The translations under genes and the position numbers were made by a program. The notes beneath the pieces were generated by a model, which was not told the origin of the DNA, did no database searches, and worked only from the letters and a program-made list of their open reading frames with translations. Of a DNA stretch of 64,000 nucleotides, positions 91 to 61,881 are shown in pieces. Source of the DNA: Pseudomonadota bacterium (GTDB taxonomy: Bacteria; Myxococcota_A; Polyangia; Polyangiales; JAKSBK01). The number at the start of each line of letters is the position of its first letter. Position 1 is the stretch's first letter. The stretch lies in assembly GCA_022361155.1 (NCBI GenBank), contig JAKSBK010000095.1, forward strand, positions 27,462 to 91,461. The letters are read 5' to 3'.

Positions 91-567
91 TCATGGACGC
101 AGGACACTAGTGAACAACAAGTGAGCGATCAGGCCCATGCTTGTCGTAACGCAAAGCAGGATCAGCGATGCGGCGTAGCGGTCGTTTCGTCGCTTCATGC
201 GCGCCGAGGCTGTGGCGAAAGCGAGCAGGCACGATAGCAGGCCCATGATCATCAAGGGAAAGGCGAGCTCGACTCGACCGGTGTCCCAGTGCGCCGGGGG
301 GTCGTTTCCCAGGAAACGATCGAACATGGTCGGCTCATCCGGTCTTGCGCTGAGCCAGAGCAGGATGCCGGCCAGGGTGAACAGCCAGCCTGTGGCCACA
401 CACCAGCTGCCGAACCTGCTCATGAAGTCGGGCCCGTTGCGCCGTTCACTCCGAGCCCGGGGCAATGGGCGGTGCCGGTCGATCAGGTTGCTCACCCACG
501 CGCACAACGGTCGCGGCACGCACCCCTTGAATCGGGCCATTGACCCACATATAGGCTGTTGCCGCAC
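91..567 (-). CDS. hypothetical small integral membrane protein
   Basis: 158-codon ORF. The C-terminal two thirds carries three hydrophobic helices (WCVATGWLFTLAGILLWL, LAFPLMIMGLLSCLLAFA, LILLCVTTSMGLIAHLLF). The real start may be the internal Met at 423. Confidence 0.4.
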   Translation of the reverse strand: MRQQPICGSMARFKGCVPRPLCAWVSNLIDRHRPLPRARSERRNGPDFMSRFGSWCVATGWLFTLAGILLWLSARPDEPTMFDRFLGNDPPAHWDTGRVELAFPLMIMGLLSCLLAFATASARMKRRNDRYAASLILLCVTTSMGLIAHLLFTSVLRP

Positions 568-701
568 AGCTAGCCTGTAGACCTACCCCGCGTGCGGGCT
601 CGAGCACACCGAGCTAACCTGCGGCGGTCACCAGCTTCGAGCCCGAGCAGCTTCACCGCTGCTTGACAGCCAGGCTAGCGCGAGATTGGATGCCCTCCCC
701 T

Positions 702-790
702 GGAGGAGTGGCCGAGCGGTCGAAGGCGGCGGACTTGAAATCCGTTGTGCCCGCAAGGGTACCGGGGGTTCGAATCCCTCCTCCTCCGCC
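702..790 (+). tRNA. tRNA-Ser (anticodon UGA), class II with long variable arm
   Basis: GGAGGAG acceptor pairs with CTCCTCC at the 3' end. Anticodon stem GCGGA/TCCGT has loop CTTGAAA (anticodon TGA). Variable arm is TGTGCCCGCAAGGGTAC. T-loop is GGTTCGAATCC. Confidence 0.9.
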
Positions 791-3245: not shown

Positions 3246-5489
3246 CTAACGGTTGGCTTCGTCGAGACGCCGCATGCCTTCCAGGAGCAGGCTCTCTGGA
3301 GGCAGCTGGATTATGCGTTGATCGGGCTGAGCGTGGGGATCGAGCTCGAACTCGCCGCTCGTGAGCACGAGCATGGCGTAGAACGCCTCCTCTCCGGTGA
3401 GCTCGCCGAAGCACGCGCCAAAGATCTGCCCCTCGCTGAAGTCGATGCTGCCTTTCTGGCGGTTGGCCGAGATCGAGAGCCGTCCGCTCTTGCGTCCGTG
3501 AAACAGGATTTGGACCACGTCGGGCAACGACATCTCGCTGAGCGAGCCACTGACGCCGCGTTTGCCCTTGCGGTCTTTGGGCTTCGCGAGCACCTGCTGA
3601 ATCTTCAGCGCTACTACGTCCGCAGCCGAGGGTTTTGTGATGTAGTCGGCGGCCCCGAGCTCGAAGCCCTTTTGCACACTCGCGCTGGATGCGTGCCGCG
3701 TCAAGAAGATGAACGGTACCTCCGCAGTCCCTTTCGTCTCACGGATCTTGCGTAGCAGATCGAAGCCGTCTCGAGGCGAGAGCTCCACTTCACTGACGAT
3801 GACATCGAAGTCGGTGCCAGCCATTTCCTGAAGCGCCCTTTGCGAGTCGCGCACAGCGGTGACGTCGAAGCCGCGTTCGATCAGCCTCAGCTCGAGCACG
3901 GTAGCCTCTTCCGGATCCGGCTCCACGAGCAGCGCGCTGCCGCTGCCGGAAAGGAGCTTCGCGCGCAGATCGTCGCCCAACACGACGTAACGGAACAGAT
4001 CGATCAGATTGGGATCGAACAGCACGCCCCCGTGCTCGGCCAGCTGCTCCCACGCTTCCTGCGCCGAGAGCTTCCTGCCGGCGGGGTTGCGTGCACGGCT
4101 CGTGAGGTCGGTGTAACTCTCCACGATGGCGAGCACTCGAGACCCAAGGGGAATCCCGGAGCCGCTCAGCCGATCCGGAAAGCCCGTGCCGTTGTAGCGC
4201 TCATACAGGTGCATGAGCGACTTGATCGCGCTCTTGGGCAGACGCACGGACTCGAACAGCTTGATCGGCGTGAGGTAGCTCTTGCGAGCGCGCGCGTTGT
4301 GGCTGTCGTACTGGGCGACGTTGAACGCAGTCAGGTGAGGACTGGCGCTCTTGCCAACGTCGTGCAGGTAGGCGGCAGTCAGAAGAGCGTCCGCTTCCTC
4401 GCCGGACAAACCGAGCCGCTCACCCATGCGCCTGCAGATCCTGCAGACCTGCGCGGAGTGGCCCCGGAGCTCGTCCCGGTCCTGCTCGAGCAACGTCACC
4501 AGCACATTGAGCGTCTCGAGGTAGTCGTGGCGTGGGACCGCCCGCGTCGCTGCCGCGTCGTGGGTGGCAACCGCGCTATCGATGCGGGCGGGCTCGGCTG
4601 CTGCTGCCTCGGGAGGAGCCGCGGCTTCAGGGGCTACCCCGGCAGGTGGCAGCGGCGCCAAGCCTTGAGCTCGGCGATCGAGGACGGAGACCGGAACCGT
4701 CGCCTCTTGACCACCGAGCAAGACGGCGACGGGCGCTGGAAGTCCCGCCGGCGCCTGCGCAGCCGTGTCCAGGCCCGGACCAGCCACCGGTGCGATGGGC
4801 ACGGCGCGCGGCAGCTCCCGGGGGGGCTCCGAGGACGGCCCGCGATCCGTGTCGGCGGCTGGGATAGGATGGTCCGGGCCCTTGGTGGGCGTCGAGACCC
4901 AGGGAGCGGCCGGGAGCGACAAGGACGCCGAACTGTCCATCGAGCCCGCGTACCGCTCCAGGTTGCGGAAGGCCGCTCGGTCGCCGTCGTAATGCAGTGC
5001 AATCGCCGCGCGGATGGCGCCCGTGCGAGCAAGCAGGAGCTTGACGCGCCTGACGCGACTCGCGAACTGAAGATGCTTGCTGAGCTCCAGGTCCGTTGGG
5101 TCGTTCACCAGTACGAACAAGGTGTGCTGGCCGCCGTCGTAGCGCACCGGAAACGCCCCGAGCTCGTGCGCGACCTTCGCAGGTAGCAGCTTGAGCAGGG
5201 CCGGGCTCAGACGAAGCCGCTCGAGCTTGGAGGTCGACAGAAACTGGGTCCGGCATAGCTTGCCCAGGATCTTGAGCAGCTCGAGCTCGGGAAGGATCCC
5301 CAAATCTACGATGGCGTCGTCCAACCCGCACCCGAAGTTGTAGGCATGCTGCTCGCAAGCGTTTGCTTGCGCCTGTGTCAGCTGTCCTTGGCTAACGAGT
5401 CGCCGCAGGGTACGGGCGCCGGCACTGGAGGAACCTGATCGACCCACAGATTTGACTAGTGTAGCGCACGCGCGGGCGAACCGAAGCAT
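3246..5489 (-). CDS. multidomain c-di-GMP signalling protein: T2SSE_N/MshEN-like, Pro/Ala linker, HD-GYP, response-regulator receiver, DUF4388
   Basis: N-terminus LVSQGQLTQAQANACEQ...LVNDPTDLELSKHLQF resembles the GspE N-terminal domain. HD-GYP motifs are GHSAQV..AAYLHDVGK and ERYNGTGFPDRLSG..IPLGSR. The REC domain has ALLVEPD..DVIVSEVEL..DYITKP. The C-terminal segment is GSLSEMSLPDVVQILFHGRKSGRL (DUF4388). Confidence 0.85.
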   Translation of the reverse strand: MLRFARACATLVKSVGRSGSSSAGARTLRRLVSQGQLTQAQANACEQHAYNFGCGLDDAIVDLGILPELELLKILGKLCRTQFLSTSKLERLRLSPALLKLLPAKVAHELGAFPVRYDGGQHTLFVLVNDPTDLELSKHLQFASRVRRVKLLLARTGAIRAAIALHYDGDRAAFRNLERYAGSMDSSASLSLPAAPWVSTPTKGPDHPIPAADTDRGPSSEPPRELPRAVPIAPVAGPGLDTAAQAPAGLPAPVAVLLGGQEATVPVSVLDRRAQGLAPLPPAGVAPEAAAPPEAAAAEPARIDSAVATHDAAATRAVPRHDYLETLNVLVTLLEQDRDELRGHSAQVCRICRRMGERLGLSGEEADALLTAAYLHDVGKSASPHLTAFNVAQYDSHNARARKSYLTPIKLFESVRLPKSAIKSLMHLYERYNGTGFPDRLSGSGIPLGSRVLAIVESYTDLTSRARNPAGRKLSAQEAWEQLAEHGGVLFDPNLIDLFRYVVLGDDLRAKLLSGSGSALLVEPDPEEATVLELRLIERGFDVTAVRDSQRALQEMAGTDFDVIVSEVELSPRDGFDLLRKIRETKGTAEVPFIFLTRHASSASVQKGFELGAADYITKPSAADVVALKIQQVLAKPKDRKGKRGVSGSLSEMSLPDVVQILFHGRKSGRLSISANRQKGSIDFSEGQIFGACFGELTGEEAFYAMLVLTSGEFELDPHAQPDQRIIQLPPESLLLEGMRRLDEANR

Positions 5490-6102: not shown

Positions 6103-7332
6103 CTAGGGCTCCATCGGTCCGAGATCCTCTCCCGACAACACATAGAAGGCTTCACCGTAGGCCGCCAGGAGCTCGAGCGCCTTGTCCATGTCCTCGCGGC
6201 TGTGTCCGCGTGTGACATTGAGCCTGAGCCGTTCTTCGCCTTGCTTGACCCCCGGATAGGTGATGGGCACCATCATCACACCGTTTTCGAGCAGGGCCAT
6301 GTGCATGAACAGCGCCTTGCGCTCGTCCCGGCACATGACGGGCATGATGTGGGTGTCGCTGATGCCGAGGTCGAAGCCAATCTGTAGCAGCCTGCTGCGC
6401 ATGTAGCGCGCGTTTTCGTGCAACTCCTGCACCAAGGCCTCCCCCTCTGCCTCCAACATGTCCAAGATCACGGACGCCGTGGCTACGAGCGGCACGGGCA
6501 ACGACGCGCTGAACAGAAAGGAGCGAGCGTAGTGTTGCACGTGCTCGACGACATCGATCGTGCCGAGCAACACGCCCCCGATTGCGCCGAAGGTCTTCGA
6601 AAACGTGGTTACGCTGATCGGAACGCGCCCGCGCAAGCCCAGATGCTCGATCACACCGGTTGCCCGCCTTCCCAGCGTCCCGGTCCCGTGGGCGTCATCG
6701 CAGATCAACACGGCGTCGTGGCGTTCACAAACCTCCACCAGCTCGGCGAGTCGGGCCATGTCCCCGTCGAGGGAATAGATGCCCTCCACGAGAACCAAAG
6801 CGTTGGGGCGATCGCTGGTCCTCAGGCAGCGTTCAAGCGAGCGAGCGGAGTTGTGATTGAAGAAGCGTACTTCCGGTTGCCGGCCGGGAGTACCTGCCGC
6901 CAGAAAGGTACCGTCCAAGATGCAGGCATGGCTCAGATTGTCGAGGACGATCGTCGTGTCCTTGTCAGCCAGCGACATGATCGTCCCGACCATGGCCTGG
7001 TAGCCGGTTGTGAAGATCAGCGCCCTGTCGTAACCGAACCAGGCCGCGAGGCGTTCTTCGAGCTCCACATGCGCTGTAGTCGTGGCCTGGACACGCGACG
7101 AGCTGAGCCCGCACGCGAACCGATCTACCGCGGCTCTGGCAGCCTGCTTCACCAGAGGATGCGTGGTTAGGCCCAAGTAGTCGTTGGAGCTGAAGTTGAC
7201 GATCGGTTTGCCCTGGATCGTGGTATGCAATCCCCCGCTTTCGAAGGGCCTGAAGAACGGGTAGACTTGACGGCTTTGTGCGTCGCGCACGCGCGACAGC
7301 TGCGAACGTGCCTTGTCGTCAGCCCAGCTCAT
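6103..7332 (-). CDS. alpha-oxoamine synthase family PLP enzyme (serine palmitoyltransferase / 8-amino-7-oxononanoate synthase-like)
   Basis: Motifs VNFSSNDYLGL, DDAHGTG and the PLP-lysine context TFSKTFGAIGG. Start taken at ATG 7332 (MSWADDK), which overlaps the upstream gene stop by 14 nt. The longer track ORF (to 7572) runs into the upstream gene. Confidence 0.9.
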   Translation of the reverse strand: MSWADDKARSQLSRVRDAQSRQVYPFFRPFESGGLHTTIQGKPIVNFSSNDYLGLTTHPLVKQAARAAVDRFACGLSSSRVQATTTAHVELEERLAAWFGYDRALIFTTGYQAMVGTIMSLADKDTTIVLDNLSHACILDGTFLAAGTPGRQPEVRFFNHNSARSLERCLRTSDRPNALVLVEGIYSLDGDMARLAELVEVCERHDAVLICDDAHGTGTLGRRATGVIEHLGLRGRVPISVTTFSKTFGAIGGVLLGTIDVVEHVQHYARSFLFSASLPVPLVATASVILDMLEAEGEALVQELHENARYMRSRLLQIGFDLGISDTHIMPVMCRDERKALFMHMALLENGVMMVPITYPGVKQGEERLRLNVTRGHSREDMDKALELLAAYGEAFYVLSGEDLGPMEP

Positions 7333-8533
7333 GACCCTCTTGCTCGCAGCGTCGTACGACCACGACCGAGACGTTGCCATAGTAGCCGAGCGTGATGACG
7401 ACCGCGGTGCGCGGGCGCGAGCGCAGCGCGCGTCCGACGAGCGGCACCACGGGTGCGCCCGCGAACCAGGCCAGCACCGTGGCAAGCGCAAACGCCCCGC
7501 TCGCGCCCAGGGTCTCTCCCAACAGGGCCTTTGGCAGCGCGGTGCTGATGTCGGCTCCGAAAAACTCCTCAACGGCGTTCAGCTCGGTGGAGTCGAAATG
7601 CGGAATGCCGCAAGCCGCGCTGCAAACGACGTCCACGTCCTGCGGGCTCAGACAGGCGTCTGCGAGCGCGTTGCGAAGCGCCCGCAAGATCGCCGACTTC
7701 GACACGTGCACGAGCGAGGCCTCCGAAGGAGGCGGCTCGAAGCCGGCGCCATAGCCCACTATCTCGGCGCGGATGCAGGCGCCTCTGGCTTTGGCGGCCT
7801 CTGGAGGCTCGATGCACAAGTAGACGGCGCCCTCACCCAGCCGCATACCCTTGCTGGCCGGTGAGCCGGGCGCGAAACCGGACGGTTGCTCCGCCAGTGC
7901 CCCCAGCTTGCGGAAGGCCAGGTACAACGGCTCGCTCAGCACTTCGCCGCCGCCCACAAGGAACATGTCGGCTCGATGGTGAGCCAGGTGGTTTTGACTG
8001 CTCAGGACGCCGTCGAGCGCCCCGCAGTTGCCGTCTACGATCGTCACATTCGGCCCACGCAGGTTCTCCCAGATACCCACGTAGGCGGAAGGCGAATTGA
8101 TCACCGTGTTCGGGAATCGATTGGGATTCAGAAAACGAGGATCTTCGAACTCGGCTACCAGATTCAGCTCGGTGATCGCGTCAAGCGAACCGTACGCCGT
8201 GGCCGAGCATACGCCCACGCGTTCGGGTGAGCCCGTGAGGTGCGAACCGTTGCGCTTGATGCGGGCGTCTTCGAGTGCGAGCTTGGCGGCGACGATGAGG
8301 AATTTCGTCAGCCGATCGAAATTACGCAAGCCTTTGCGTCCCAGGTAGGAGCCCGCGTCGAAGTCGCGCACCTGCGCCGCAAGCGTGTTGCCGGCGTGCT
8401 GCGGCGACAACACGTCCAGTGGAGGTCCAAACGCATGTTCGGCCGCGGCCCCGCCTCGCAGCAGCTCGAAAAACCGCCTTCGGCCCACGCCCAAGGGGCC
8501 AACGACGCCCAGTCCGGTGACGGATAGCTTCAC
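7319..8533 (-). CDS. ketosynthase-like partner protein lacking the Cys-His-His triad (CLF/KS-beta-like)
   Basis: Thiolase-fold KS homology begins at KLSVTGLGVVGPLG. The active-site position aligns as DGNCGAL against AACAAGN in the neighbouring KS. The two His positions read AACGIP and LGETLG. Start proposed at GTG 8533. Confidence 0.8.
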   Translation of the reverse strand: MKLSVTGLGVVGPLGVGRRRFFELLRGGAAAEHAFGPPLDVLSPQHAGNTLAAQVRDFDAGSYLGRKGLRNFDRLTKFLIVAAKLALEDARIKRNGSHLTGSPERVGVCSATAYGSLDAITELNLVAEFEDPRFLNPNRFPNTVINSPSAYVGIWENLRGPNVTIVDGNCGALDGVLSSQNHLAHHRADMFLVGGGEVLSEPLYLAFRKLGALAEQPSGFAPGSPASKGMRLGEGAVYLCIEPPEAAKARGACIRAEIVGYGAGFEPPPSEASLVHVSKSAILRALRNALADACLSPQDVDVVCSAACGIPHFDSTELNAVEEFFGADISTALPKALLGETLGASGAFALATVLAWFAGAPVVPLVGRALRSRPRTAVVITLGYYGNVSVVVVRRCEQEGHELG

Positions 8534-8702: not shown

Positions 8703-9935
8703 CTAGGACAACGCCGTTTCGGGCAGGCGACCCGCGCGGGCGAACGCGAGCACCGCATCGTAGCCACCAAAGGCAAGGGCGTTGTTCAAGACCACACCGC
8801 TCGGTCCCCGAGTAGCCTGGTTCGCCACCAGGTTGATGTCGCATTCGGGGTCCGGCGTTTCGTAGCCGACCGTGGGGGGGTAGACGCCAGTTTGCACCGT
8901 CATCACGCAGGAGACGGCTTCGAGCGCGCTAGCGGCACCCATGCAGTGACCCAGCATGCCCTTCATGCTGCTTACGGGAACGGGGCGCTCGCCAAACACT
9001 TCGCGAATCACGCGCGACTCGATGCGATCGTTGGCGTGGGTACCCGTGCCGTGTGCATTGATGAAGTCCACTTCATCCACGGCAAGTCCGCTTTCGTCGA
9101 TGGCGGCTTGCATTGCTGTGCGGATCCCGGCGCCCTCGGGGTGCGGGCGGGTGATGTGATGAGCGTCGCAAGCGAGCCCGCAGCCGCCGATTTCGGCGAG
9201 CGGTGAAGCTCCGCGTGCGGCCGCGTGACGCTCGGATTCCAGAATGAGCATTGCCGCACCCTCACCCAGGATGAGGCCCTTTCTGTTCTTGTCGAACGGC
9301 TGGCAACGCTGCCGTGCCATAGCCCCCAAGCGCACGAAGCCAGCGAACTCGAGACGCTGCAGGATCTCACTGGCTCCGCTGATGGCGACGTCGGCACGGC
9401 CGGCGCGGATGTGGTCCGCTGCAAAACCAATGGCATAATTGCCGGCCGCACATGCCGCGGGCAGTGTTTGAACCATGCCCTGCGCGCCAAACGCCCGAGC
9501 GATGTGAATCGGCAGCAGCGTCGTGCCGTATCGGGGGATCTTGCCTTTGTCCACCGCCTCCACGCCCTCGCGGAACCATGTGCTCTCGAGCTCTCCGATG
9601 ATATCGGCCTCACCCATGGTGGTGCCTACAACGACCGCGGTGCGCTCGCCGGCGAGCAGGCCGCTGTCGAGCTTTGCGTCCTCCACGGCCATGCGCGCCG
9701 CCGCGAGCCCGAAGGCGGAGCAGCGGCCCATCCGGCGTGCCTCGGCCCCGGTCAGGAAGTCACGGGGCCGGAAGCCCTTGACCTCCCCGGCAAAGCACCG
9801 GTCGAGGCCGCGCGTGTCGAAGGTCTCGATCGGGCTGAAGCCGCAGCGTCCCGCCACCATGGAATCCCAGAACGCCGTGCGTCCAAGACCCAGCGAGCTA
9901 ACAACCCCCAGACCGGTAACAAAGACTCGCCCCAT
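8703..9935 (-). CDS. beta-ketoacyl-ACP synthase (FabF/KAS II-like, catalytically complete)
   Basis: MGRVFVTGLGVV N-terminus. Active-site Cys in LPAACAAGNYA. His in NAHGTGTHAND and GMLGHCMGAAS. Start taken at ATG 9935. Confidence 0.9.
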   Translation of the reverse strand: MGRVFVTGLGVVSSLGLGRTAFWDSMVAGRCGFSPIETFDTRGLDRCFAGEVKGFRPRDFLTGAEARRMGRCSAFGLAAARMAVEDAKLDSGLLAGERTAVVVGTTMGEADIIGELESTWFREGVEAVDKGKIPRYGTTLLPIHIARAFGAQGMVQTLPAACAAGNYAIGFAADHIRAGRADVAISGASEILQRLEFAGFVRLGAMARQRCQPFDKNRKGLILGEGAAMLILESERHAAARGASPLAEIGGCGLACDAHHITRPHPEGAGIRTAMQAAIDESGLAVDEVDFINAHGTGTHANDRIESRVIREVFGERPVPVSSMKGMLGHCMGAASALEAVSCVMTVQTGVYPPTVGYETPDPECDINLVANQATRGPSGVVLNNALAFGGYDAVLAFARAGRLPETALS

Positions 9936-9971
9936 GCGAGTGGACCTATGAGCGCACGTGACAGCTTCTAG

Positions 9972-10142: not shown

Positions 10143-11843
10143 ATGCGACCGCGTTGTGATGGCGTGACCCAGCCCGCAGCACAGACGCTCGTTTCCGCGC
10201 TCGAGCAGCTGCCCAACGACAGCGAGCGAGGCTTCCGCTTCCTCGACCCGCAGGGGCAGGAGCGCAACTACCCCCAACGAGCGATCCGCGCCGAAGCCAA
10301 GCGCCGCGCCGCGCTGTTGCTACAGCACGGCCTGCGCAAGGGTGACCGGGTCGTCGTCGCCGTTGCTCAGGAAGACGAGTTCGTGCTGAGCTTCCTTGGT
10401 GCGGTGGTGGCCGGTCTGGTGCCGGTCCCGGTATCCGCAACCCCTTTGCTCAGAGCGGTCGATGGCCACCTTGGCACGCTGCGCCATGTGAGTCGGGCCT
10501 CCGGAGCGCGGGCTGTCGTCGTGATGGAACGCAACCGCTCGCTCCTTGGGGAGTTGTGGGATGGCCAAGATTTCGCGCCCCGGTTGCTCAGTGTGGAGGC
10601 AGACTTGGCGGGTGCACCGCAAGCGGACGTCGCCCTACCCCGGGTGACCCCCCAAGATCCATGTTTTGTGCAGTTCACCTCGGGCAGCACGGCGCTGCCC
10701 AAAGGCGTGACGATCACGCATGCCAACCTGGTCCGAAATGCCCGAGATTTCCTGGGGCCTTCGGGGCTCGATCGACGCGACGACGATCTTGGGGTGAGCT
10801 GGCTGCCGCTGTTTCACGATATGGGATTGATCGGCTTCATCTTGGGCACGCTGATCTGCGATATCCCGGTGGTTATCCTGCCCACGGCTGCCTTCGCGCG
10901 CAATCCGCGCAGCTGGCTCGAAACGATTCACAGCGTCAGAGGCACGATCACCTATGCCCCGAACTTCGCATACGGGTTGGCTGCCAAGCGCCTGCGCGAG
11001 CGCGATCTGGCTCGTTTGGACCTGAGCTGTCTACGCGTCGCCGGCTGCGGGGCAGAGCCGATCAACCCCGACACGATGCGCGCCTTTGCCCGGCGCCTCC
11101 AGCCGACCGGTTTTCGAGCCGAGGCCTTGCTGCCGTCGTACGGCATGGCGGAGGCAACACTCGCGATCACTTTTCATCCGCATGGCACGCCCCTGGCTAC
11201 CGACCGCGTCGATTCGGTGGCGCTCAGGGCTGGGCGAGCGACGCAAAGCGAGCGTGTCGCGCAAAGCACCGAGCTGGTTTCCTGCGGCCGGCCCTTTCCG
11301 GGCCATGAGCTGCGTACCGTCGACGAGCAGGGCCGGAAGCTTGGGGATCGGCAGGTAGGCGAAATCGTGGTGCGGGGTCCCAGCGTGAGCCCGGGCTACC
11401 ATAACGATCCAGCGGCGAGCGCTGCCAGCTTCAGAAACGGATGGTTGCACACGGGCGACCTCGGCTACCTGGCGGGCGGCAATCTGTACATTTGTGGGCG
11501 CGTCAAAGACCTCATTATCGTCCGCGGAGCGAACTACTACCCGCAGGACATCGAATGGTTGGTGAGCAGTCTTGAGGGCGTTCGGCGTGACAACGCGATC
11601 GCGTTTGGTGTGGTGCAGGACGGCGAGGAGCGGCTCGTCGTGGCGGCGGAGTGTGCCTCTGCGGACGCGCAACGGCTGCGCGAGGCCATCGCCGCCCGGG
11701 TCTCCGAGGCCACCGGGCTGGCTGTTGCTCGCGTCAGCGCCGTGCGGATCGGTGCCCTACCCAAGACGACCAGCGGAAAAGTTCAGCGACGCAAGACCAA
11801 GCAGCTCTTCGAGGAGGGGAAGCTCGAGGAGCACGGTCCCTGA
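10143..11843 (+). CDS. fatty acyl-AMP ligase (FAAL / FadD32-like adenylating enzyme)
   Basis: FVQFTSGSTALPKGV (A3 core), WLPLFHDMGLIGF, GDLGY, the insertion-containing FAAL-style C-terminal half, and LPKTTSGKVQR. The start is ambiguous (TTG 10128, ATG 10143 or GTG 10164). Confidence 0.88.
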   Translation: MRPRCDGVTQPAAQTLVSALEQLPNDSERGFRFLDPQGQERNYPQRAIRAEAKRRAALLLQHGLRKGDRVVVAVAQEDEFVLSFLGAVVAGLVPVPVSATPLLRAVDGHLGTLRHVSRASGARAVVVMERNRSLLGELWDGQDFAPRLLSVEADLAGAPQADVALPRVTPQDPCFVQFTSGSTALPKGVTITHANLVRNARDFLGPSGLDRRDDDLGVSWLPLFHDMGLIGFILGTLICDIPVVILPTAAFARNPRSWLETIHSVRGTITYAPNFAYGLAAKRLRERDLARLDLSCLRVAGCGAEPINPDTMRAFARRLQPTGFRAEALLPSYGMAEATLAITFHPHGTPLATDRVDSVALRAGRATQSERVAQSTELVSCGRPFPGHELRTVDEQGRKLGDRQVGEIVVRGPSVSPGYHNDPAASAASFRNGWLHTGDLGYLAGGNLYICGRVKDLIIVRGANYYPQDIEWLVSSLEGVRRDNAIAFGVVQDGEERLVVAAECASADAQRLREAIAARVSEATGLAVARVSAVRIGALPKTTSGKVQRRKTKQLFEEGKLEEHGP

Positions 11844-12117
11844 TCCGCATCGGTCACCAGCTTCCGGCACGAAGGTGGTGCGCCAAGGTCAGGCCGACCA
11901 GCTCCCGCGAGCTCAGGTGGCGCTGCGGCACGCGCCTGCTATAGCGCGGTGCGGTCCATGGGCGATCGCCCGGCTGCAACCTTGCTGCTGATGGGTCCCA
12001 GGGTACCGAAACGCCGCCAAAGTCAAGTGTCATGAACGAGCCAATCTGCGTGGACGACCGGGGGGGTTTGCGCGTATAAGGCATGCTGCGCGCGCCTCAT
12101 GGAGAGAAGGAGCGGAG

Positions 12118-14720: not shown

Positions 14721-14824
14721 CAGTGGAGATTAAGTGGCGGCCCAATGGAGATCCGTGGGAGCAACCGCGCGAAAGGCCGGCACGGTAGGCACGTGCTTCC
14801 GATCGCAAGCGCACAGGCGGACCG

Positions 14825-16192
14825 ATGCATATCGTGGTCGTTGGCAACGGCGTAGCGGGAATGGAGGCGGCCCTGTCGCTGCGCTCGGCAGACGAGTCGC
14901 TTGAGCTTACGGTGGTCTCCGAGGAGTCCGACAATTTCTTCTCGCGTACGGCGCTGATGTGGGTGCTGTGCGGGCAGCTCAACCACGCTGACATCGAGCC
15001 CTACGAGCGTGGTCTGTACGAGCGGGCCCGCCTAAGGCGCATCAGGGCGCGCGCCGTGGGACTGGACGCCCGCGGCAAGCGACTGCTGTTGGCGGGCAAT
15101 CGCACCGCATTGAGCTACGATCGGCTCCTGATAGCGTGCGGCTCACGGCCTCGCCGACCTCCTTGGCCCAACGCCGACCTCAGGGGCATCGGTCACTTTG
15201 TCACGATGCAGGATCTGGAGTGGCTGGAGCAGGAGCTGTACGCCGGACCGGGTCAAGGTCGGCCTCCCCGACCCGATCAGCACCTTGGCGCAACAACGGA
15301 TGATTCCCCCTACTTGCCCCGTGCGCCGGCCGCAACCCTGAGGTCGCGCCTTGCCGGCGAGCCGGCCGTGATCGGAGGAGGCCTGATCGGCATCGAAGCG
15401 GTCGAGGTCTTTGTGGCGGCTGGGCGTCGCCCGCGTTTCTTCATCCGAGAGGAGTGGTTCTGGCCGATCGCGCTCGATGCACGCGAAGCCGCTTGGGTCG
15501 CGCAACGGCTCCGCTCGCACGGCGTCGACGTGCTGCTCGATCACGAGATCACCGGGTTCGAAGGCGACGAACAGGGCACGGTGCGCTGCGTCCGCACGGC
15601 CTCGGGCGAGCATGCGTGCGATGTGGTGGTCGTCGCTATCGGTGTGGAGCCCAACACCGGATGGCTTGCCGACTCGGGGCTCGAGCTCGACGAGCTCGGA
15701 GGTATCGTGGTCGGGGACGACTTGAGGACCTGCCTGCCCTCGGTATTCGCTGCGGGCGACTGCGCTTCGGTGCGTTGGGAGGATGGCACGCGGCGTCCGG
15801 AACAGCTCTGGTATACCGCACGCGATCAGGGACGCGTCGCGGCGCGTGCCCTCATGGGAGAGCCGGTTCGCTACGATCGAGGCACCTGGTACAATGCGGC
15901 AAAGCTGATGGACATCGAGTACACGACGGTGGGGCAAGTAAACCGGCGCCTGTCCGGAGAACAAAACTGGTTTCACGAAGAGATGGGTGCTGTGCGGAGC
16001 ACCACGCGGATTGTGAGCATGGCTGACCGCATCGTGGGGTTCAACGCCTTGGGTCGCCGCTGGGATCACGATCTGGTGGCGCGATGGATCGAGGAGCGCC
16101 GTACGCTGCCGTGGGTCATCGCGCATCTAAGCGAAGCGTCCTTTGACAGCGAGCTTGTGCCGCCGCCGCAACTGCCGCACACGAACGTCTAG
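14825..16192 (+). CDS. FAD/NAD(P)-dependent pyridine nucleotide-disulfide family oxidoreductase
   Basis: N-terminal dinucleotide fold MHIVVVGNGVAGMEAA, a second fold PAVIGGGLIGIEAVE, and VFAAGDCA near the C-terminal FAD contact. Confidence 0.85.
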   Translation: MHIVVVGNGVAGMEAALSLRSADESLELTVVSEESDNFFSRTALMWVLCGQLNHADIEPYERGLYERARLRRIRARAVGLDARGKRLLLAGNRTALSYDRLLIACGSRPRRPPWPNADLRGIGHFVTMQDLEWLEQELYAGPGQGRPPRPDQHLGATTDDSPYLPRAPAATLRSRLAGEPAVIGGGLIGIEAVEVFVAAGRRPRFFIREEWFWPIALDAREAAWVAQRLRSHGVDVLLDHEITGFEGDEQGTVRCVRTASGEHACDVVVVAIGVEPNTGWLADSGLELDELGGIVVGDDLRTCLPSVFAAGDCASVRWEDGTRRPEQLWYTARDQGRVAARALMGEPVRYDRGTWYNAAKLMDIEYTTVGQVNRRLSGEQNWFHEEMGAVRSTTRIVSMADRIVGFNALGRRWDHDLVARWIEERRTLPWVIAHLSEASFDSELVPPPQLPHTNV

Positions 16193-20887: not shown

Positions 20888-22291
20888 ATGGCCAGCCAGC
20901 CTGCCAGGGGTACCCGGGATTTCTTGCCTGACGACGTGCGCAAGCGCGAGCACGTGACGTCCATCATCCGGCGCGTGTACGAGTCGCACGGTTTCGAGGC
21001 GCTCGAGACGCCGTGCTTCGAGCGCCTCGAGACCCTGCTCGGCAAGTACGGCGAGGAAGGGGACCAGCTGCTGTTCAAGGTGCTGTTGCGGGGTCAGCCC
21101 CTGGTCAGCGGAATCCGACAGGCCGCGGAGCTGCTCGAGCGCTCGGGCACGGTCGTGCATGGACGCAGCGGTGAGACTGCGCCGGCGGCCGAGCAGCGCC
21201 TCTCGGATCTCGGCCTGCGCTACGATCTCACGGTCCCGCTGGCTCGCGTGGTCGCGGCGCATCAGGGCAAGCTTCCTGCCGTGTTCAAGCGCTACCAGAT
21301 TCAGCCGGTGTGGCGCGCGGATACCCCCGGGAAAGGACGCTTCCGCGAGTTCTACCAGTGCGACGTGGATGTGATCGGCTCCTCCTCGCTGCTGGTAGAG
21401 GCAGAGGTGGCGAGCGCGGCCTGCGAGTGCATGCAGCGGCTGGGTTTCGCCTCCTTCCGCGTGCGGCTCAACCATCGCTTGCTGCTCAAGGCCGTGATGC
21501 AGCGTGCCGGCATCGCCGCTCACCAGCAGCTCGCCGCCATCACCGCGCTCGACAAGCTCGACAAGATCGGCCTGCCCGGCGTCGAAAAAGAGCTGCTCGC
21601 TCGCGGCATCGAATCCGCAAGTTGCACGAGGCTACTCGAGATCGTGGGCGAGTCTGCAAGCATGGTCACCATGCGCGAACAGCTGAGTGGTAGCGACCTG
21701 GGCCGGCAGGCGTTGTCCGATGTGGATCGCGTACTCGAGCTGGCCGCGCTGACACCGGCTGCGCGTCATCTGGAGTTCGACGTCTCGTTGGCTCGTGGGC
21801 TCGGCTACTACACGGGCTGCATCTTCGAGATAGCCGTCCCCGATCTTGCAGGCTCGCTGGGGGCCGGCGGGCGCTACGATGGGCTGATCGGCATGTTTCT
21901 AGGCAAGGACATGCCCGCTTGCGGCATCTCGCTTGGGCTCGAGCGTATCCTGGTCGTGATGCAAGAGCGCGGGATGTTCCCTGCTGCCATGGCCCACGCA
22001 GACGTCGTCCTGAGCGCGACGCATGAAGACGACCTTGGAGCAGCCCTGGTGCTCAGCCAGAAGCTGCGCTCTGCGGGCCTGCGAGTGGACCTGCGACCCA
22101 AAGCCACCAAGCCGGGCCCGCTGCGCAAGTATGCCGACGCCCGCGGCGTTGTGTCCGCGGTGTGGTTCGAGCGCGGACAGGCCGATCACCTCAAGATCTG
22201 GCGCAAGGAGCGCGGAGTCCTGGGCGGTGACCTGTCTCCCGAGGCCCTGCTGACCGAGCTGATCCGTCCGAACCAAGCCCCGTCCGGATAG
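20888..22291 (+). CDS. hisS: histidine--tRNA ligase
   Basis: N-terminal PARGTRDFLPDD, class II motifs (FRYERPQ-equivalent WRADTPGKGRFREFYQCD, GGRYDGL), and a C-terminal anticodon-binding domain. Confidence 0.95.
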   Translation: MASQPARGTRDFLPDDVRKREHVTSIIRRVYESHGFEALETPCFERLETLLGKYGEEGDQLLFKVLLRGQPLVSGIRQAAELLERSGTVVHGRSGETAPAAEQRLSDLGLRYDLTVPLARVVAAHQGKLPAVFKRYQIQPVWRADTPGKGRFREFYQCDVDVIGSSSLLVEAEVASAACECMQRLGFASFRVRLNHRLLLKAVMQRAGIAAHQQLAAITALDKLDKIGLPGVEKELLARGIESASCTRLLEIVGESASMVTMREQLSGSDLGRQALSDVDRVLELAALTPAARHLEFDVSLARGLGYYTGCIFEIAVPDLAGSLGAGGRYDGLIGMFLGKDMPACGISLGLERILVVMQERGMFPAAMAHADVVLSATHEDDLGAALVLSQKLRSAGLRVDLRPKATKPGPLRKYADARGVVSAVWFERGQADHLKIWRKERGVLGGDLSPEALLTELIRPNQAPSG

Positions 22292-34309: not shown

Positions 34310-34403
34310 GACGATCCGCCTCCGATTCGAGCCGGTATCCGACCCCGTTCGGCGCCGGGGTCGGATCCAGACAGCCGCTGCGCAAGACCCCCGCGATCAC
34401 CGG

Positions 34404-34487
34404 TGCGGACGAGAGGATTTGAACCTCCACGGGGTTTCCCCCACCAGATCCTTAGTCTGGCGCGTATGCCAATTCCGCCACGTCCGC
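34404..34487 (-). tRNA. tRNA-Leu with anticodon AAG (class II)
   Basis: The minus strand reads GCGGACG TG GCGGAATTGGCATACGCG CCAGA CTAAGGA TCTGG TGGGGGAAACCCCGT GGAGG TTCAAAT CCTCT CGTCCGC A. It is colinear with E. coli tRNA-Leu. Loop CTAAGGA places AAG at positions 34-36. Confidence 0.85.
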
Positions 34488-34709
34488 GCTTGCTAGGACC
34501 CGTCCAACAATGACCTTTCGGGATCGACGACGGCCGGTGGTCAGGGCCGGCGAAAACGGGAAAGTCATGTTGGGACGGGCCTGCAGTTGGCACATGTAGC
34601 CACGCGGACCGGCTCGGTCAAGCAGTGGGTTGCCGTGGCGAACGGACTACCTGTTCAAGACTGCGCGCTATCCGCCGAATTGGGTCGACGCTGCGGCGAG
34701 GCTTGGACT

Positions 34710-40478: not shown

Positions 40479-40505
40479 TACTGGGACTAGGACTAGGACC
40501 TGCCC

Positions 40506-41354
40506 TTGAGAATCGAAGCGTCCTTTCTAGAAATCGCCTCGGCGTATCGGTTCGTGTTCCTTGACGCTTACGGCGTGCTCAAGAACTCCACGGGCATGAT
40601 CCAGGGCGCCGCGGAGACCCTGCTCAAACTGGGGGAACAGGGTAGCGACTGCTACGTGATTACAAACGACGCGTCCCGCTCTCCAGGCCAAATGGCGCGC
40701 AGCTACTGCCACCCGCGCTACGGCGAGCTGGTCCCCGTCGAGCACATCATCTCCTCGGGTATGCTGGCCAGTGACTTTCTTGCCTCCAAGGTCCGCCCCG
40801 GTCGTGTAGCCTACGTCGGCAAGCCGTCGTCCGCCTACTACATCGAGTCCGCGGGACACACGCCGCTGCCGGTCGCTCAGTGCGCCGACGACCACGCCAT
40901 AGATGCTCTCGTGCTGCTCGATGACGAAGGTTTCGACTGGTTTTCAGATATCAACCGCTGCGTCAACCTACTGCGGCGTCAGAATGTACCCGTCGTCGTG
41001 GCCAACACCGACCTGTCCTATCCGGCCAGCGAAACCGATGTCTCGATCGCAGTAGGAAGCCTGGCCAATATGATCGAAGGAATCATCCAGAAAACCTTCA
41101 TTCGTTTTGGCAAGCCGGACACTCAGATATTTGATTTCGCATACGACCTAGTGCTGACTCGCGATCCGCTCACAAGCAAGAAGCAAGTCTTGATGGTCGG
41201 TGACACACTACATACAGATATCCTGGGCGGAAACAAATTTGGAATAGACACGCTGCTGGTTCTCTCGGGAAATACACAGGAACGCGATGCCGAGGTTCGA
41301 ATCCACGCTACGGGTATCCTGCCAAACTTCGTTTGCGCATCGATCGCGACCTGA
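40506..41354 (+). CDS. HAD-superfamily subfamily IIA hydrolase (NagD-like phosphatase)
   Basis: Motif I FVFLDAYGVL, motif II VITNDAS, and motif IV MVGDTLHTDILGG. TTG start. GC content is visibly lower than the flanks. Confidence 0.8.
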   Translation: MRIEASFLEIASAYRFVFLDAYGVLKNSTGMIQGAAETLLKLGEQGSDCYVITNDASRSPGQMARSYCHPRYGELVPVEHIISSGMLASDFLASKVRPGRVAYVGKPSSAYYIESAGHTPLPVAQCADDHAIDALVLLDDEGFDWFSDINRCVNLLRRQNVPVVVANTDLSYPASETDVSIAVGSLANMIEGIIQKTFIRFGKPDTQIFDFAYDLVLTRDPLTSKKQVLMVGDTLHTDILGGNKFGIDTLLVLSGNTQERDAEVRIHATGILPNFVCASIAT

Positions 41355-41363
41355 GGTCCCGTC

Positions 41364-42419
41364 CTAAGACACGCACCGGCGCAGCATCCGAAGATCCATG
41401 GCGTCCAGCGCCGGCAAGTGCAGCTTGACCACTTTTTTGCGCAACCTGCGGCAAATTCGGGGGCGGAAGAAATGCTCTCCATCCTTCACAACATAGTTGA
41501 GCACGAAGAAACGATAAAGCTCTGGCAAGAGCAGAAGCTCTTCTGGAGCCAAAGGGCGCACCCGAGAATAGGTTCTCAGGAATAGGCAAAAGCGTGGATC
41601 CAGCAACGTGTTGGGAGCGTAGGAGAATTCGCTCCGATCGCCCATCGAGCTCACGACGCGACTCGCGAAGTAGAAATCAAGAAGCGGCGAGCCCAAGCGG
41701 AACCAATCGTAGTCCCACCGGCTGAAGAAACGGAAGTGACCCGATTGGAAGATCACGGAAAAATTGCCCGTGTTCCAGTCAATCAGCACAGGAATCTTCA
41801 GAGTCTGATGGTATTCGAGGCGCTCCAGATTCGACGACAGCACGTCGATCTGGCCTCGGAGGAAATCGGCTTCCACGACCGAAAGCGGAAACTCGAAGAC
41901 CCAGCGCTCGTTCGAGAGACGGTGAGCGAGATCCGCCAGATCCGACTCGATGCTTTTGGCTGTCCCCGGAACCTGCTCGCGTACTTCCCAGCTCTGGACG
42001 TGAAACCGTGCCAACGCCTCGGCGAGGTCCACGATCTGGGACCCGGACAGGATCCTGGGCAAGCGGTCCTTGACCACGACGTCCACGTAAAAGACGACCC
42101 AATGACGACCCTCGTTGTACACGTACACCTTGTCGTCCTTGCAGACCGCCCGCGCCAAGAAACTTGCGTAAGGCCCATGCGACAGCGCCTCGGTCCAGCC
42201 TCGGATACTCTCGTGGTCGTCGTAGAAATCGCGAAAGCGACCGTAGGAGGAGACCTTCGTCACCAACGTGGTCCCGTCGTCGAGCGTTACTCGAAACACC
42301 TGGTTCGTGGATACGCTGGTGCTTACCTCGACGGCATCGACGAGGCACCGGCCGTCGGCGAGCTCGAGCCAAGCCCTCTGCACGATGCCGGGAGGGGGCC
42401 ATGATGGGCGAGATGGCAT
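41364..42419 (-). CDS. aminoglycoside-phosphotransferase (APH/CotS/choline-kinase) fold kinase
   Basis: Catalytic-loop equivalent VLIDWNTGNFSV and Mg-binding region SRWDYDWFRLGSPLLDF. Start taken at ATG 42419. Lower GC than the flanks. Confidence 0.75.
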   Translation of the reverse strand: MPSRPSWPPPGIVQRAWLELADGRCLVDAVEVSTSVSTNQVFRVTLDDGTTLVTKVSSYGRFRDFYDDHESIRGWTEALSHGPYASFLARAVCKDDKVYVYNEGRHWVVFYVDVVVKDRLPRILSGSQIVDLAEALARFHVQSWEVREQVPGTAKSIESDLADLAHRLSNERWVFEFPLSVVEADFLRGQIDVLSSNLERLEYHQTLKIPVLIDWNTGNFSVIFQSGHFRFFSRWDYDWFRLGSPLLDFYFASRVVSSMGDRSEFSYAPNTLLDPRFCLFLRTYSRVRPLAPEELLLLPELYRFFVLNYVVKDGEHFFRPRICRRLRKKVVKLHLPALDAMDLRMLRRCVS

Positions 42420-42543
42420 GCACCGGTAGTGTAGCCGGCTGGCCCCGCCATTGCAGGACCGGCTGGTAGGCGGGACGTGCCGGCCGCCAGCTCGTCGCCG
42501 GGGGGTCTTGCGTCGCAATCATGCGACCGCTAGTACCCGACAC

Positions 42544-43428
42544 GTGCGCTGGGATGTCGACCCGATCATTGTTGAGCTCGGTCCGCTGGAGCTGCGCTGG
42601 TATGGACTCTTCTTCGCCTTTGGGCTGCTGTTGGCGGCCCGAGCGTATCCGCGCATCTTCGCCCGCCGGGGGTTGGCCGAGGAACACGCGCAGCGGCTCA
42701 CCCTGTGGCTGCCGGTCGGAATGATCCTCGGGGCGCACCTCGTTCACCTCATCTTCTATGAGCCACGCTCGTTCATCGAGCAGCCGCAACGCATCATCGA
42801 GATCGGAAAGGGCCTCTCGAGCCACGGCGGCGCGCTGGGCGCTGTTGTCGCACTACTTATCTACGTTCGGCGCCGTGGCCTCGATCTGCATCGGTACCTC
42901 GACGCTTCGCTCATCGGAGCCATCTGGATCTTTCCATGGGTTCGGATTGGCAACTTCTTCAACTCCGAGATCTACGGAAAACCCACGGACCTACCCTGGG
43001 GGGTTGTCTTTGCGCTCCGGCAGCCGGAAGCTCGTCACCCAACTCAGCTCTACGAGGCCTTGGGGGGGTTTGCCCTGTTGTGGTTCGCCTACTGGCTCGA
43101 CCGCAACTACCGAGCCCGACTGCGCGACGGCGCGACTTTTTATCTGCTGACCGGCACCTACTTCGTTGGCCGCTTTCTTGTCGAGTACTTGAAGGCCTAT
43201 CAAGTACTGGACCCCGGCCTTCCACTAACCATGGGCCAATGCCTGAGTTTACCGGTGGTCGCTCTGTCAGCGTACATGCTGCTAGCTTCCAAGGATCACA
43301 ACATCAGGACAGCCAGACCCAAAGAGTCGCGCGACACGACCCTGGAGCTGAAGTCAGGACGAAACGGCAAGGGCAGGAAGAAACGCAAGGGCGGCGGCAA
43401 GAACCGGAGACGCCTGAAATCTGCCTAG
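42544..43428 (+). CDS. lgt: prolipoprotein diacylglyceryl transferase
   Basis: LRWYGLFFAFGLL, GLSSHGGALG, NFFNSEIYGKPTDLPWGVVF, HPTQLYEA, and FYLLTGTYFVGRFLVEY. GTG 42544 start. Lys/Arg-rich C-terminal tail. Confidence 0.92.
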   Translation: MRWDVDPIIVELGPLELRWYGLFFAFGLLLAARAYPRIFARRGLAEEHAQRLTLWLPVGMILGAHLVHLIFYEPRSFIEQPQRIIEIGKGLSSHGGALGAVVALLIYVRRRGLDLHRYLDASLIGAIWIFPWVRIGNFFNSEIYGKPTDLPWGVVFALRQPEARHPTQLYEALGGFALLWFAYWLDRNYRARLRDGATFYLLTGTYFVGRFLVEYLKAYQVLDPGLPLTMGQCLSLPVVALSAYMLLASKDHNIRTARPKESRDTTLELKSGRNGKGRKKRKGGGKNRRRLKSA

Positions 43429-43430
43429 TC

Positions 43431-43459
43431 AGACAGGCTTGACCGAGCCAAGCCTGTCT
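43431..43459. terminator. bidirectional hairpin between convergent lgt and SDR genes
   Basis: Perfect 11-bp stem AGACAGGCTTG / CAAGCCTGTCT with a 7-nt loop, lying between the two stop codons. Confidence 0.55.
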
Positions 43460-44297
43460 AGTCGTTGCGCTGCTCCCGGACGCGCTGCAACGCCCTGCGA
43501 AACTGGGAAGCAAGCTGCGAACCGAGAAAAGCGCGTGGCAGCAGCGGCGCGAGGGCAAGCTGCAAGCGGTTGAACCTGCGCGGCACGTACATGTAACGGC
43601 GCGCGGCAAAGGCCTCGACAGCCTCGCGAGCACAGGCGTCGGCAGCCTGAACCATGATGCTCTTTGGGCTCCACGTGTGGACCGTTCCGGATAGATGTAT
43701 CATCTCGGTGTCGATCGCAGCGGGCACAAAAGTCGTCACCGATACGTCTTTGTTGTGCAGCTCGTGGTGCAGACCTCGTCCCAGCGTCGTGATGAAGGCC
43801 TTGGTGCTGGAGTAAGCCGTCTGGTAGGGCACCGGTATGAGAGCAGTGAGGCTCGTGACGAGCATCAGCCCTCCGCCGCTGCCGTTCTCGATCAGATGGG
43901 GCACGGCGAGATGCACGAGCCGCGCAACGCTGGTCACATTGGTCGCCATGAGTTTTTCGAAGGCGGACCAGTCCAGCTCGAGATGCTCGCCGAAGTGGGT
44001 TACGCCCGCGTTGAGAATGGCCCCGTAGAGCACCCGACCCTGCACTGCCTGCCGAAACAGGCGGTCGGGCTCTCCGTTCCGTGAAAGGTCGGCAGGGACG
44101 ATTTCTACCTGTACACCCGCACCTTTCGTAAGCTCCCCACGCAAGGCGTCCAGCCGATCCCTGCGGCGTGCCGTGAGTACCAAGTTGGCACCATGTCGAA
44201 GCGCGAGCTCGCGAGCGATCTCCCGGCCCAGCCCGGACGAGGCGCCGGTCACGAGAACCCACCGCGACCGAAATTCCATTCTCCCCATAATTGGCAT
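43458..44297 (-). CDS. short-chain dehydrogenase/reductase (SDR)
   Basis: WVLVTGASSGLGREIA (TGxxxGxG), NAG, and YSSTKAF (YxxxK). Candidate starts at 44297, 44288 or 44279. Confidence 0.88.
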   Translation of the reverse strand: MPIMGRMEFRSRWVLVTGASSGLGREIARELALRHGANLVLTARRRDRLDALRGELTKGAGVQVEIVPADLSRNGEPDRLFRQAVQGRVLYGAILNAGVTHFGEHLELDWSAFEKLMATNVTSVARLVHLAVPHLIENGSGGGLMLVTSLTALIPVPYQTAYSSTKAFITTLGRGLHHELHNKDVSVTTFVPAAIDTEMIHLSGTVHTWSPKSIMVQAADACAREAVEAFAARRYMYVPRRFNRLQLALAPLLPRAFLGSQLASQFRRALQRVREQRND

Positions 44298-61663: not shown

Positions 61664-61799
61664 GACCCCGTTCCAGAGCTCGCTCCAGTCGCCCGGCTTG
61701 CGGCGTGGAACCGGGCAGTACCGGCGGGGTCGCCGACGCAAGCGCCGACACATCGGCTGCAGGCGACGCCAACGTGCCGGTATCACACAAGTTACGGAG

Positions 61800-61881
61800 T
61801 GCCGGGGGCGGGACTCGAACCCGCACACCACTGGGGTCGGCGATTTTAAGTCGCCTGCGTCTGCCATTCCGCCACCCCGGC
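61800..61881 (-). tRNA. tRNA-Leu (anticodon UAA), class II
   Basis: The minus strand reads GCCGGGG TG GCGGAATGGCAGACGCA GGCGA CTTAAAA TCGCC GACCCCAGTGGTGT GCGGG TTCGAGT CCCGC CCCCGGC A. Confidence 0.9.

Follow-up and report, generated by a model that had tools for sequence, protein, structure and literature searches.

A conserved Polyangiales tRNA-Leu gene with a genomic AAG anticodon, a probable substrate for A34-to-I34 editing

The window (the whole 64-kb stretch of DNA that was analysed) has a G+C content of about 65% throughout and contains, according to ARAGORN, three tRNA genes only: tRNA-Leu(AAG), tRNA-Leu(UAA) and tRNA-Ser(UGA). The first of these was called as a tRNA-Leu with anticodon aag at 34402-34487 of the minus strand. 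It also matched the full Rfam model RF00005 (model positions 1-71) from 34487 to 34404 on that strand, with a score of 56.4 bits (E 1.7e-9, gathering score 29), which is near the 60.4 and 57.2 bits obtained for the other two tRNAs. The Rfam alignment sets the register of the anticodon arm, in which a stem of 5 bp (CCAGA/UCUGG) encloses the 7-nt loop CUAAGGA. The gene carries the marks of a class II tRNA, with a 14-nt variable region containing a 4-bp stem, G18G19 in the D loop, the discriminator A73 and G36-G37, while its CCA is incompletely encoded (A73 is followed by CCG). A score above the Rfam threshold, the tRNA-finder call, the long variable arm, A73 and G18G19 are what is expected of a bacterial class II tRNA-Leu. 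The original prediction had described a canonical class II tRNA-Leu with the loop CTAAGGA and the anticodon AAG at 34451-34453, and had proposed running a tRNA finder over the locus. The ARAGORN call (tRNA-Leu, aag) and the full-length Rfam match agree with this description, including its register, and add that the gene lies on the minus strand, which had been left unstated. The features of the locus and of its relatives are collected in Table 1.

Table 1. Positions of the features discussed in the text, in the window and in related or matching contigs.
Sequence	Feature	Position	Strand	Remarks
Window	tRNA-Leu(AAG) gene, class II	34404..34487	minus	84 nt up to discriminator A73; ARAGORN and Rfam RF00005
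Window	Anticodon loop C32-U33-A34-A35-G36-G37-A38	34449..34455	minus	Rfam alignment and sequence
Window	Anticodon AAG	34453..34451	minus	CTT on the plus strand; A34 is the plus-strand T at 34453
Window	Imperfect hairpin, ~85 nt, arms ~21 nt	34497..34582		RNA fold -45.7 kcal/mol, z = -3.3
Window	Candidate sigma-70-type promoter	34593..34621	minus	TTGACC (34621-34616), 17-nt spacer, TACATG (34598-34593); read from the sequence
Window	tRNA-Leu(UAA) gene	61799-61881
Window	Region with a GC dip	40479-44000		GC of the dip 0.598; dip 6 kb from tRNA-Leu(AAG)
Window	ORF without Pfam match	41364-42518	minus	In the region with the GC dip
Window	675-aa ORF	1160-3187	plus	Stig1 cysteine-rich family, Pfam PF04885, E 1.4e-22
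L083 (GCA_041389625.1)	Syntenic tRNA-Leu(AAG)			Divergent from aroQ-accBC operon
L084 (2.6-Mb JGI contig)	Syntenic tRNA-Leu(AAG)			Divergent from operon
L085	Syntenic tRNA-Leu(AAG)	3435-3520		Same strand as operon
L086 (GCA_047601445.1, 9.5-Mb contig)	Syntenic tRNA-Leu(AAG)			Divergent from operon
L087 (GCA_964202905.1)	Syntenic tRNA-Leu(AAG)	8168-8254		Same strand as operon
L212	Syntenic tRNA-Leu(AAG)			Divergent from operon
L213 (GCA_046351215.1)	Syntenic tRNA-Leu(AAG)	2985-3068		Same strand as operon
L130	tRNA-Leu(AAG) beside small ORF and aroQ			Divergent from operon
L083	tRNA-Gly(CCC)	20919-20994		~6.7 kb from TPR gene
L086	tRNA-Gly(CCC)	15796-15871		~0.05-0.8 kb from TPR gene (range for L086, L087 and L212)
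L087	tRNA-Gly(CCC)	14722-14797		See L086
L211	tRNA-Gly(CCC)	11794-11869		~1.5 kb from TPR gene
L212	tRNA-Gly(CCC)	9870-9945		See L086
L108	tRNA-Leu(AAG), same anticodon arm	6194-6280		GC 0.625; acceptor stem GCCCGGG
L135	tRNA-Leu(AAG), same anticodon arm	627-711		GC 0.36; acceptor stem GCCCGGG
L189	tRNA-Leu(AAG), same anticodon arm	10468-10556		GC 0.47
L191	tRNA-Leu(AAG), same anticodon arm	170-252		GC 0.756

One flank of the tRNA gene holds accD, a Cu-oxidase_4 family gene, an SCP2 gene, a DUF6544 gene and an aldo/keto reductase gene. On the other flank, a small ORF of about 120 aa (no Pfam match) is followed by aroQ, accB, accC and the gene of a large TPR protein. The G+C content is even around the tRNA, and a scan of ten neighbouring ORFs gave neither an integrase nor a phage gene. 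Nothing around the gene points to a mobile element, and its context is core chromosome.

The AccC protein of the window, whose exact sequence gave no record in the protein look-up, was used to find related loci. Its closest relative in a large protein collection is 99% identical and comes from an ENA metagenome, and it is followed by a series at 69-76% identity; the named sources of these relatives are Polyangiales, Myxococcota, Myxococcales or Sandaracinaceae MAGs, which assigns the window to a Polyangiales (Myxococcota) member that is uncultured or has been little sampled. In stretches of 13-21 kb read from the relatives, the same neighbourhood contains a tRNA-Leu(AAG) gene in ten more contigs of Polyangiales/Myxococcota, whose AccC, where measured, is 69-76% identical to that of the window. 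Seven of these are AccC relatives (70-76% identity) in which the tRNA lies between the Cu-oxidase_4/SCP2 genes and the operon made up of the small ORF, aroQ, accB, accC and the TPR gene. The other three (L130, L172 and L180) are metagenome contigs found by a DNA pattern scan, where the tRNA again has the small ORF and aroQ next to it. The window and these ten contigs, 11 in all, share A34. The contig with the 99% identical AccC (L081) stops inside the gene adjoining the tRNA, which places base 34 of this conspecific outside its span. At this locus, tRNA-Leu(AAG) is missing from L082, L211 (Sandaracinaceae MAG), L001 (Polyangiaceae MAG), and L003 and L005 (both Nannocystis), indicating that the feature marks a subclade and not all myxobacteria, though these relatives might carry the gene elsewhere in their genomes. 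A scan of the genome collection with AccC gave relatives of at most 63% identity, and the syntenic tRNA in none of the 40 loci scanned.

The orientation of tRNA-Leu(AAG) differs between the relatives (Table 1), the gene being divergent from the operon in the window and five relatives and on the same strand in three others. The surroundings of the tRNA have thus undergone small local inversions, in which the gene and its promoter were retained. A promoter-like TTGAC(A)-N16/17-TAnnnT motif is conserved 10-45 nt upstream of the tRNA in five relatives, in either gene orientation. A consensus promoter and terminator scan around the window tRNA gave nothing that passed, and the candidate promoter, a tentative assignment with a weak consensus, is located about 105 nt upstream of the gene, with a hairpin in between. 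The arms of this hairpin (CCCGTCCAACAATGACCTTTC / GGAAAGTCATGTTGGGACGGG) occur nowhere else in the window. The structure, which is situated between the candidate promoter and the 5' end of the tRNA and also upstream of the divergent operon containing aroQ, is absent upstream of the tRNA in five relatives, and it could have arisen as a small insertion or serve as a leader or in regulation. RNase P removes tRNA leaders, so the hairpin is no argument against expression.

Nine aligned copies are 84.5-98.8% identical to the window's tRNA. While the anticodon stem and loop are invariant across these nine orthologues, the acceptor, T and variable stems show compensatory changes, with 99.5% of the pair cells occupied by standard pairs. 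Five pairs are changed on both sides, compared with at most one in slid controls (which pair in 36-59%), and the observed covariation score was reached by none of 500 shuffles. Synteny, compensatory changes and the conserved promoter together rule out a recent accident as well as a pseudogene or an assembly error, and with the ARAGORN and Rfam calls they dispose of the outcomes that the original prediction had named as fatal to it (another anticodon, a pseudogene call or an assembly error). Selection thus keeps A34 in place.

The demand on this tRNA was estimated from the 46 likely genes of the window, in which leucine is encoded by CUG (40.9%), CUC (31.6%), UUG (14.0%), CUU (8.7%), CUA (4.2%) and UUA (0.5%). 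UUA is nearly absent even though the window contains a tRNA-Leu(UAA) gene. CUA is the least used A-ending codon of all eight four-fold boxes in the same 46 ORFs, at 4.9% of CUN versus 7.5-14.3% elsewhere. The original prediction had pointed to the abundance of CUC, which is borne out by a share of 31.6% against 8.7% for CUU. It had also stated that A34 tRNAs other than tRNA-Arg(ACG) are rare in bacteria and that CUY codons are normally read by a GAG anticodon, both of which are supported by the literature (PMC8266599, PMC11066159, PMC13249217). Unmodified A34 tRNAs read U-ending codons and strongly discriminate against C-ending ones (PMC11066159), and an unmodified tRNA-Leu(AAG) would therefore serve the minor codon CUU. 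A34 is found in all copies, the genome is GC-rich, and a change of A34 to G would give a good GAG tRNA; considering these together, A34 is best explained as the precursor of I34.

Inosine at position 34 reads U, C and A, and bacteria with a tRNA-Arg(ACG) have TadA as a general rule, on which we base the assumption that TadA is present here. The explanation that we consider likely as a whole is that of a functional chromosomal tRNA-Leu gene with a genomic AAG anticodon, probably derived from a tRNA-Leu(UAG), whose A34 is most likely made I34 by TadA. The transcript would be processed normally and then charged by LeuRS, which charges without reading the anticodon (PMC11028032). The resident TadA would deaminate A34 to give a tRNA-Leu(IAG), by which CUU, CUC and, more weakly, CUA would be read. 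Weak I:A decoding would fit the low usage of CUA, which is however widespread among bacteria.

Given a functional gene, we regard its editing to I34 as quite probable. S. pneumoniae tRNA-Leu(AAG) has exactly the same loop, CUAAGGA (PMC13249217 supplement), which also fits the consensus YUAMGRA of TadA-substrate loops in S. pyogenes (PMC11472039). The streptococcal TadA edits tRNA-Leu(AAG) both in vitro and in vivo (PMC11472039, PMC13249217), and TadA-dependent I34 has been demonstrated on tRNA-Leu(AAG) of Oenococcus oeni, Streptococcus pyogenes, S. mutans and S. pneumoniae (PMC11472039, PMC13249217, PMC8072771). The interpretation given in the original prediction is supported in part. Its premises regarding A34 tRNAs and codon reading were sound, but the broadened TadA specificity which it named as one implication is not new, having been shown in Lactobacillales by these same three studies. 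The Polyangiales gene is thus most likely to represent a new, independent case of the tRNA-Leu A-to-I editing known from streptococci. The phenomenon itself is already known, and what is new is the lineage, a GC-rich group of Myxococcota, and not the mechanism. Acceptance of A35 by TadA is not automatic, as the E. coli enzyme leaves streptococcal tRNA-Leu(AAG) unedited (PMC11472039), and two of the four A34 tRNAs of O. oeni are unmodified (PMC8072771). Searches for the enzyme covered a small part of the genomes. A TadA motif regex gave no deaminase motif in the window, and tblastn with E. coli TadA (an approximate query sequence) against 2.2 Mb matched only unrelated Acidobacteria-like and cyanobacterial loci, with no match in the window or the Polyangiales loci (about 64 kb and about 150 kb of multi-megabase genomes). 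Likewise, neither tRNA-Arg(ACG) nor another CUN-reading tRNA-Leu was found in the window or the fetched stretches of its relatives. A tRNA-Leu(GAG) and/or tRNA-Leu(UAG) may be encoded elsewhere in the genome and would make editing less necessary, so that the need for editing seen by the original prediction depends on these genes and on TadA.

Such a tRNA-Leu(GAG) is part of the main alternative, according to which the tRNA is functional but keeps an unmodified A34, reading mainly CUU and perhaps some C-ending or all four CUN codons, with CUC left to the GAG tRNA. The broad reading is modelled here on reports for a few unmodified A34 tRNAs. The rejection of tRNA-Leu(AAG) by E. coli TadA (PMC11472039) and the lack of a visible TadA in the window and the fetched loci of relatives both speak for it. 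We nevertheless consider it unlikely, as CUU is a minor codon and fits the demand poorly, yet A34 persists in every one of the contigs despite their GC-rich background. In addition, tRNA-Leu(AAG) is edited in every bacterium tested so far (O. oeni, S. pyogenes, S. mutans), and the loop is the same as the edited streptococcal one.

Two further explanations are both very improbable. An error at 34453, or a decayed pseudogene copy of tRNA-Leu(UAG) or tRNA-Leu(GAG), could produce AAG by a single base change, and the promoter match of the window itself is weak. The same A34 is however found at the syntenic locus of ten contigs that are independent of each other, coming from different assemblies and samples; the covariance score is on a par with those of the neighbouring tRNAs, and all the stems are kept by compensatory substitutions. 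This reading was rejected on the comparative data. Equally improbable is that a mobile element or prophage brought the tRNA, which would then stand outside the decoding set of the host. Genes for tRNAs are common integration sites, an odd hairpin adjoins this one, and the G+C content dips 6 kb away, but the gene has housekeeping flanks whose order is conserved across relatives with 70-76% AccC identity, an even G+C content around it, and no integrase or phage gene among the ten ORFs scanned. The mobile-element reading was rejected since no integrase with direct repeats was observed to bracket the tRNA and the gene is present in relatives.

Editing to I34 by TadA being the preferred reading, the gene can be compared with known systems. 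Like the Lactobacillales tRNA-Leu(AAG), it is of class II, has a genomic A34 and the loop CUAAGGA, and occurs across a clade rather than sporadically. The hosts differ in composition, the Myxococcota being GC-rich (about 65%) and the Bacilli AT-rich, and so do the codons served: CUC would dominate here, whereas CUU and CUC both rose in streptococci, where editing is proven and not, as here, proposed. The anticodon stem is CCAGA/UCUGG, compared with CAGGA/UCCUG in S. pneumoniae tRNA-Leu(AAG), to which the overall identity is 70%, and both differences indicate an origin probably independent of the streptococcal gene. With tRNA-Arg(ACG), which is edited to ICG, the gene has in common A34 within a CU-A-x-G-R-A loop, and the Arg-box scheme, with an I34 tRNA for U-, C- and A-ending codons and a C34 tRNA for G-ending ones, could apply to CUN. 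It differs in amino acid and tRNA class, in having A35 instead of C35, and in having G37 compared with A37 of the E. coli tRNA (loop CUACGAA). The S. pyogenes study describes positions 35 and 37 as splayed outward in the TadA-RNA complex, with C35 relatively solvent-exposed (PMC11472039). The eukaryotic tRNA-Leu(IAG), produced by ADAT2/ADAT3, shares the anticodon and presumably reads the same codons, but is made by a heterodimeric enzyme whose sequence specificity is relaxed, while bacterial TadA is a homodimer which reads the loop sequence (PMC11472039). A GtRNAdb survey (2026) assigns almost all bacterial tRNA-Leu(AAG) genes to Bacilli and a few to Mycoplasma and Prochlorococcus (PMC13249217). 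The latter are also outside Lactobacillales and are likewise putative substrates of editing, but they belong to AT-rich bacteria with small genomes, while the Polyangiales lineage is GC-rich with large genomes (contigs of up to 9.5 Mb). No mention of tRNA-Leu(AAG) in Myxococcota was found in the searchable literature.

The closest resemblance of the anticodon arm is to tRNA-Leu(UAG). When the metagenome contigs were searched with ACGCRCCAGACTNAGGATCTGG, which covers the 3' strand of the D stem and the anticodon arm with N34 left free, at least 120 matches were obtained; among the matches listed, 113 had T at N34, 7 had A, and none had G or C. Over the whole of this stretch, the gene is the same as these metagenome tRNA-Leu(UAG) genes (113 among the matches listed) except at position 34. 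In the E. coli isoacceptors, which were taken by coordinates for the stem comparison (blastn of the window tRNA against E. coli genomes gave no match), the stem CCAGA/TCTGG is found only in leuW (UAG), where position 34 is U instead of A, and leuU (GAG) and leuV (CAG) have other stems. The tRNA body is not shared with the Lactobacillales tRNA-Leu(AAG), and the arm matches the Leu(UAG)-type genes. The gene thus probably arose from a tRNA-Leu(UAG) by a single U34-to-A change, as drawn from the identity of this arm (one shared 5-bp stem and its loop), and its origin is probably separate from that of the Lactobacillales gene. Once edited, its decoding range would have moved from CUA/CUG(/CUU) to CUU/CUC/CUA. 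A tRNA-Leu(UAG) at the orthologous locus of sister lineages was not seen, the aroQ neighbourhood being present in none of the 113 UAG loci among the matches listed. A single mutation turns the UAG loop CUUAGGA into CUAAGGA, which is compatible with TadA. This may be the reason for a recurrent rise of tRNA-Leu(AAG), and suggests a simple evolutionary path to a TadA-like substrate. Four unrelated metagenome contigs of widely differing G+C content (Table 1) also contain a tRNA-Leu(AAG) gene with this anticodon arm, and two of these genes have the same acceptor stem. They suggest that tRNA-Leu(AAG) arose repeatedly outside Bacilli.

The place of this tRNA in the leucine box can be read in several ways. 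It may have replaced the GAG tRNA, as in Lactobacillales, where UAG is retained, or the UAG tRNA, or both. The most far-reaching version, in which a tRNA-Leu(IAG) derived from tRNA-Leu(UAG) replaced both, so that CUN is read by IAG and CAG in the way that CGN is read by ICG and CCG, is in our opinion doubtful. If it were true, a GC-rich bacterium with a large genome could not decode leucine codons without TadA, and a change of U34 to A would be a second independent route to I34 expansion, with a co-evolved TadA specificity. The spread of wobble inosine to tRNAs other than tRNA-Arg is a hallmark of eukaryotes. Among bacteria, AT-rich Lactobacillales are the only ones for which such an expansion has been demonstrated, and there it has been linked to genome-wide recoding of leucine codons and to a TadA with a wider range of substrates. 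The tRNA-Leu(AAG) of GC-rich Myxococcota would be an independent natural replicate with the opposite composition, in which CUC dominates and UUA hardly occurs. Two questions could be addressed with it, namely whether TadA specificity co-evolves alike, and whether I34-carrying tRNA-Leu generally reshapes codon usage.

Some minor observations concern the surroundings of the locus. In five relatives, the TPR gene is followed at varying distances by a tRNA-Gly(CCC) gene (Table 1). This tRNA gene is absent from the window, where blastn finds no remnant of it; the corresponding region (40479-44000) has the GC dip and contains an ORF without a Pfam match. Elsewhere in the window, a 675-aa ORF matches the Stig1 cysteine-rich family, which has been described from plants. 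Such a match is unusual in a bacterial protein, and Cys-rich repeats alone may account for it.
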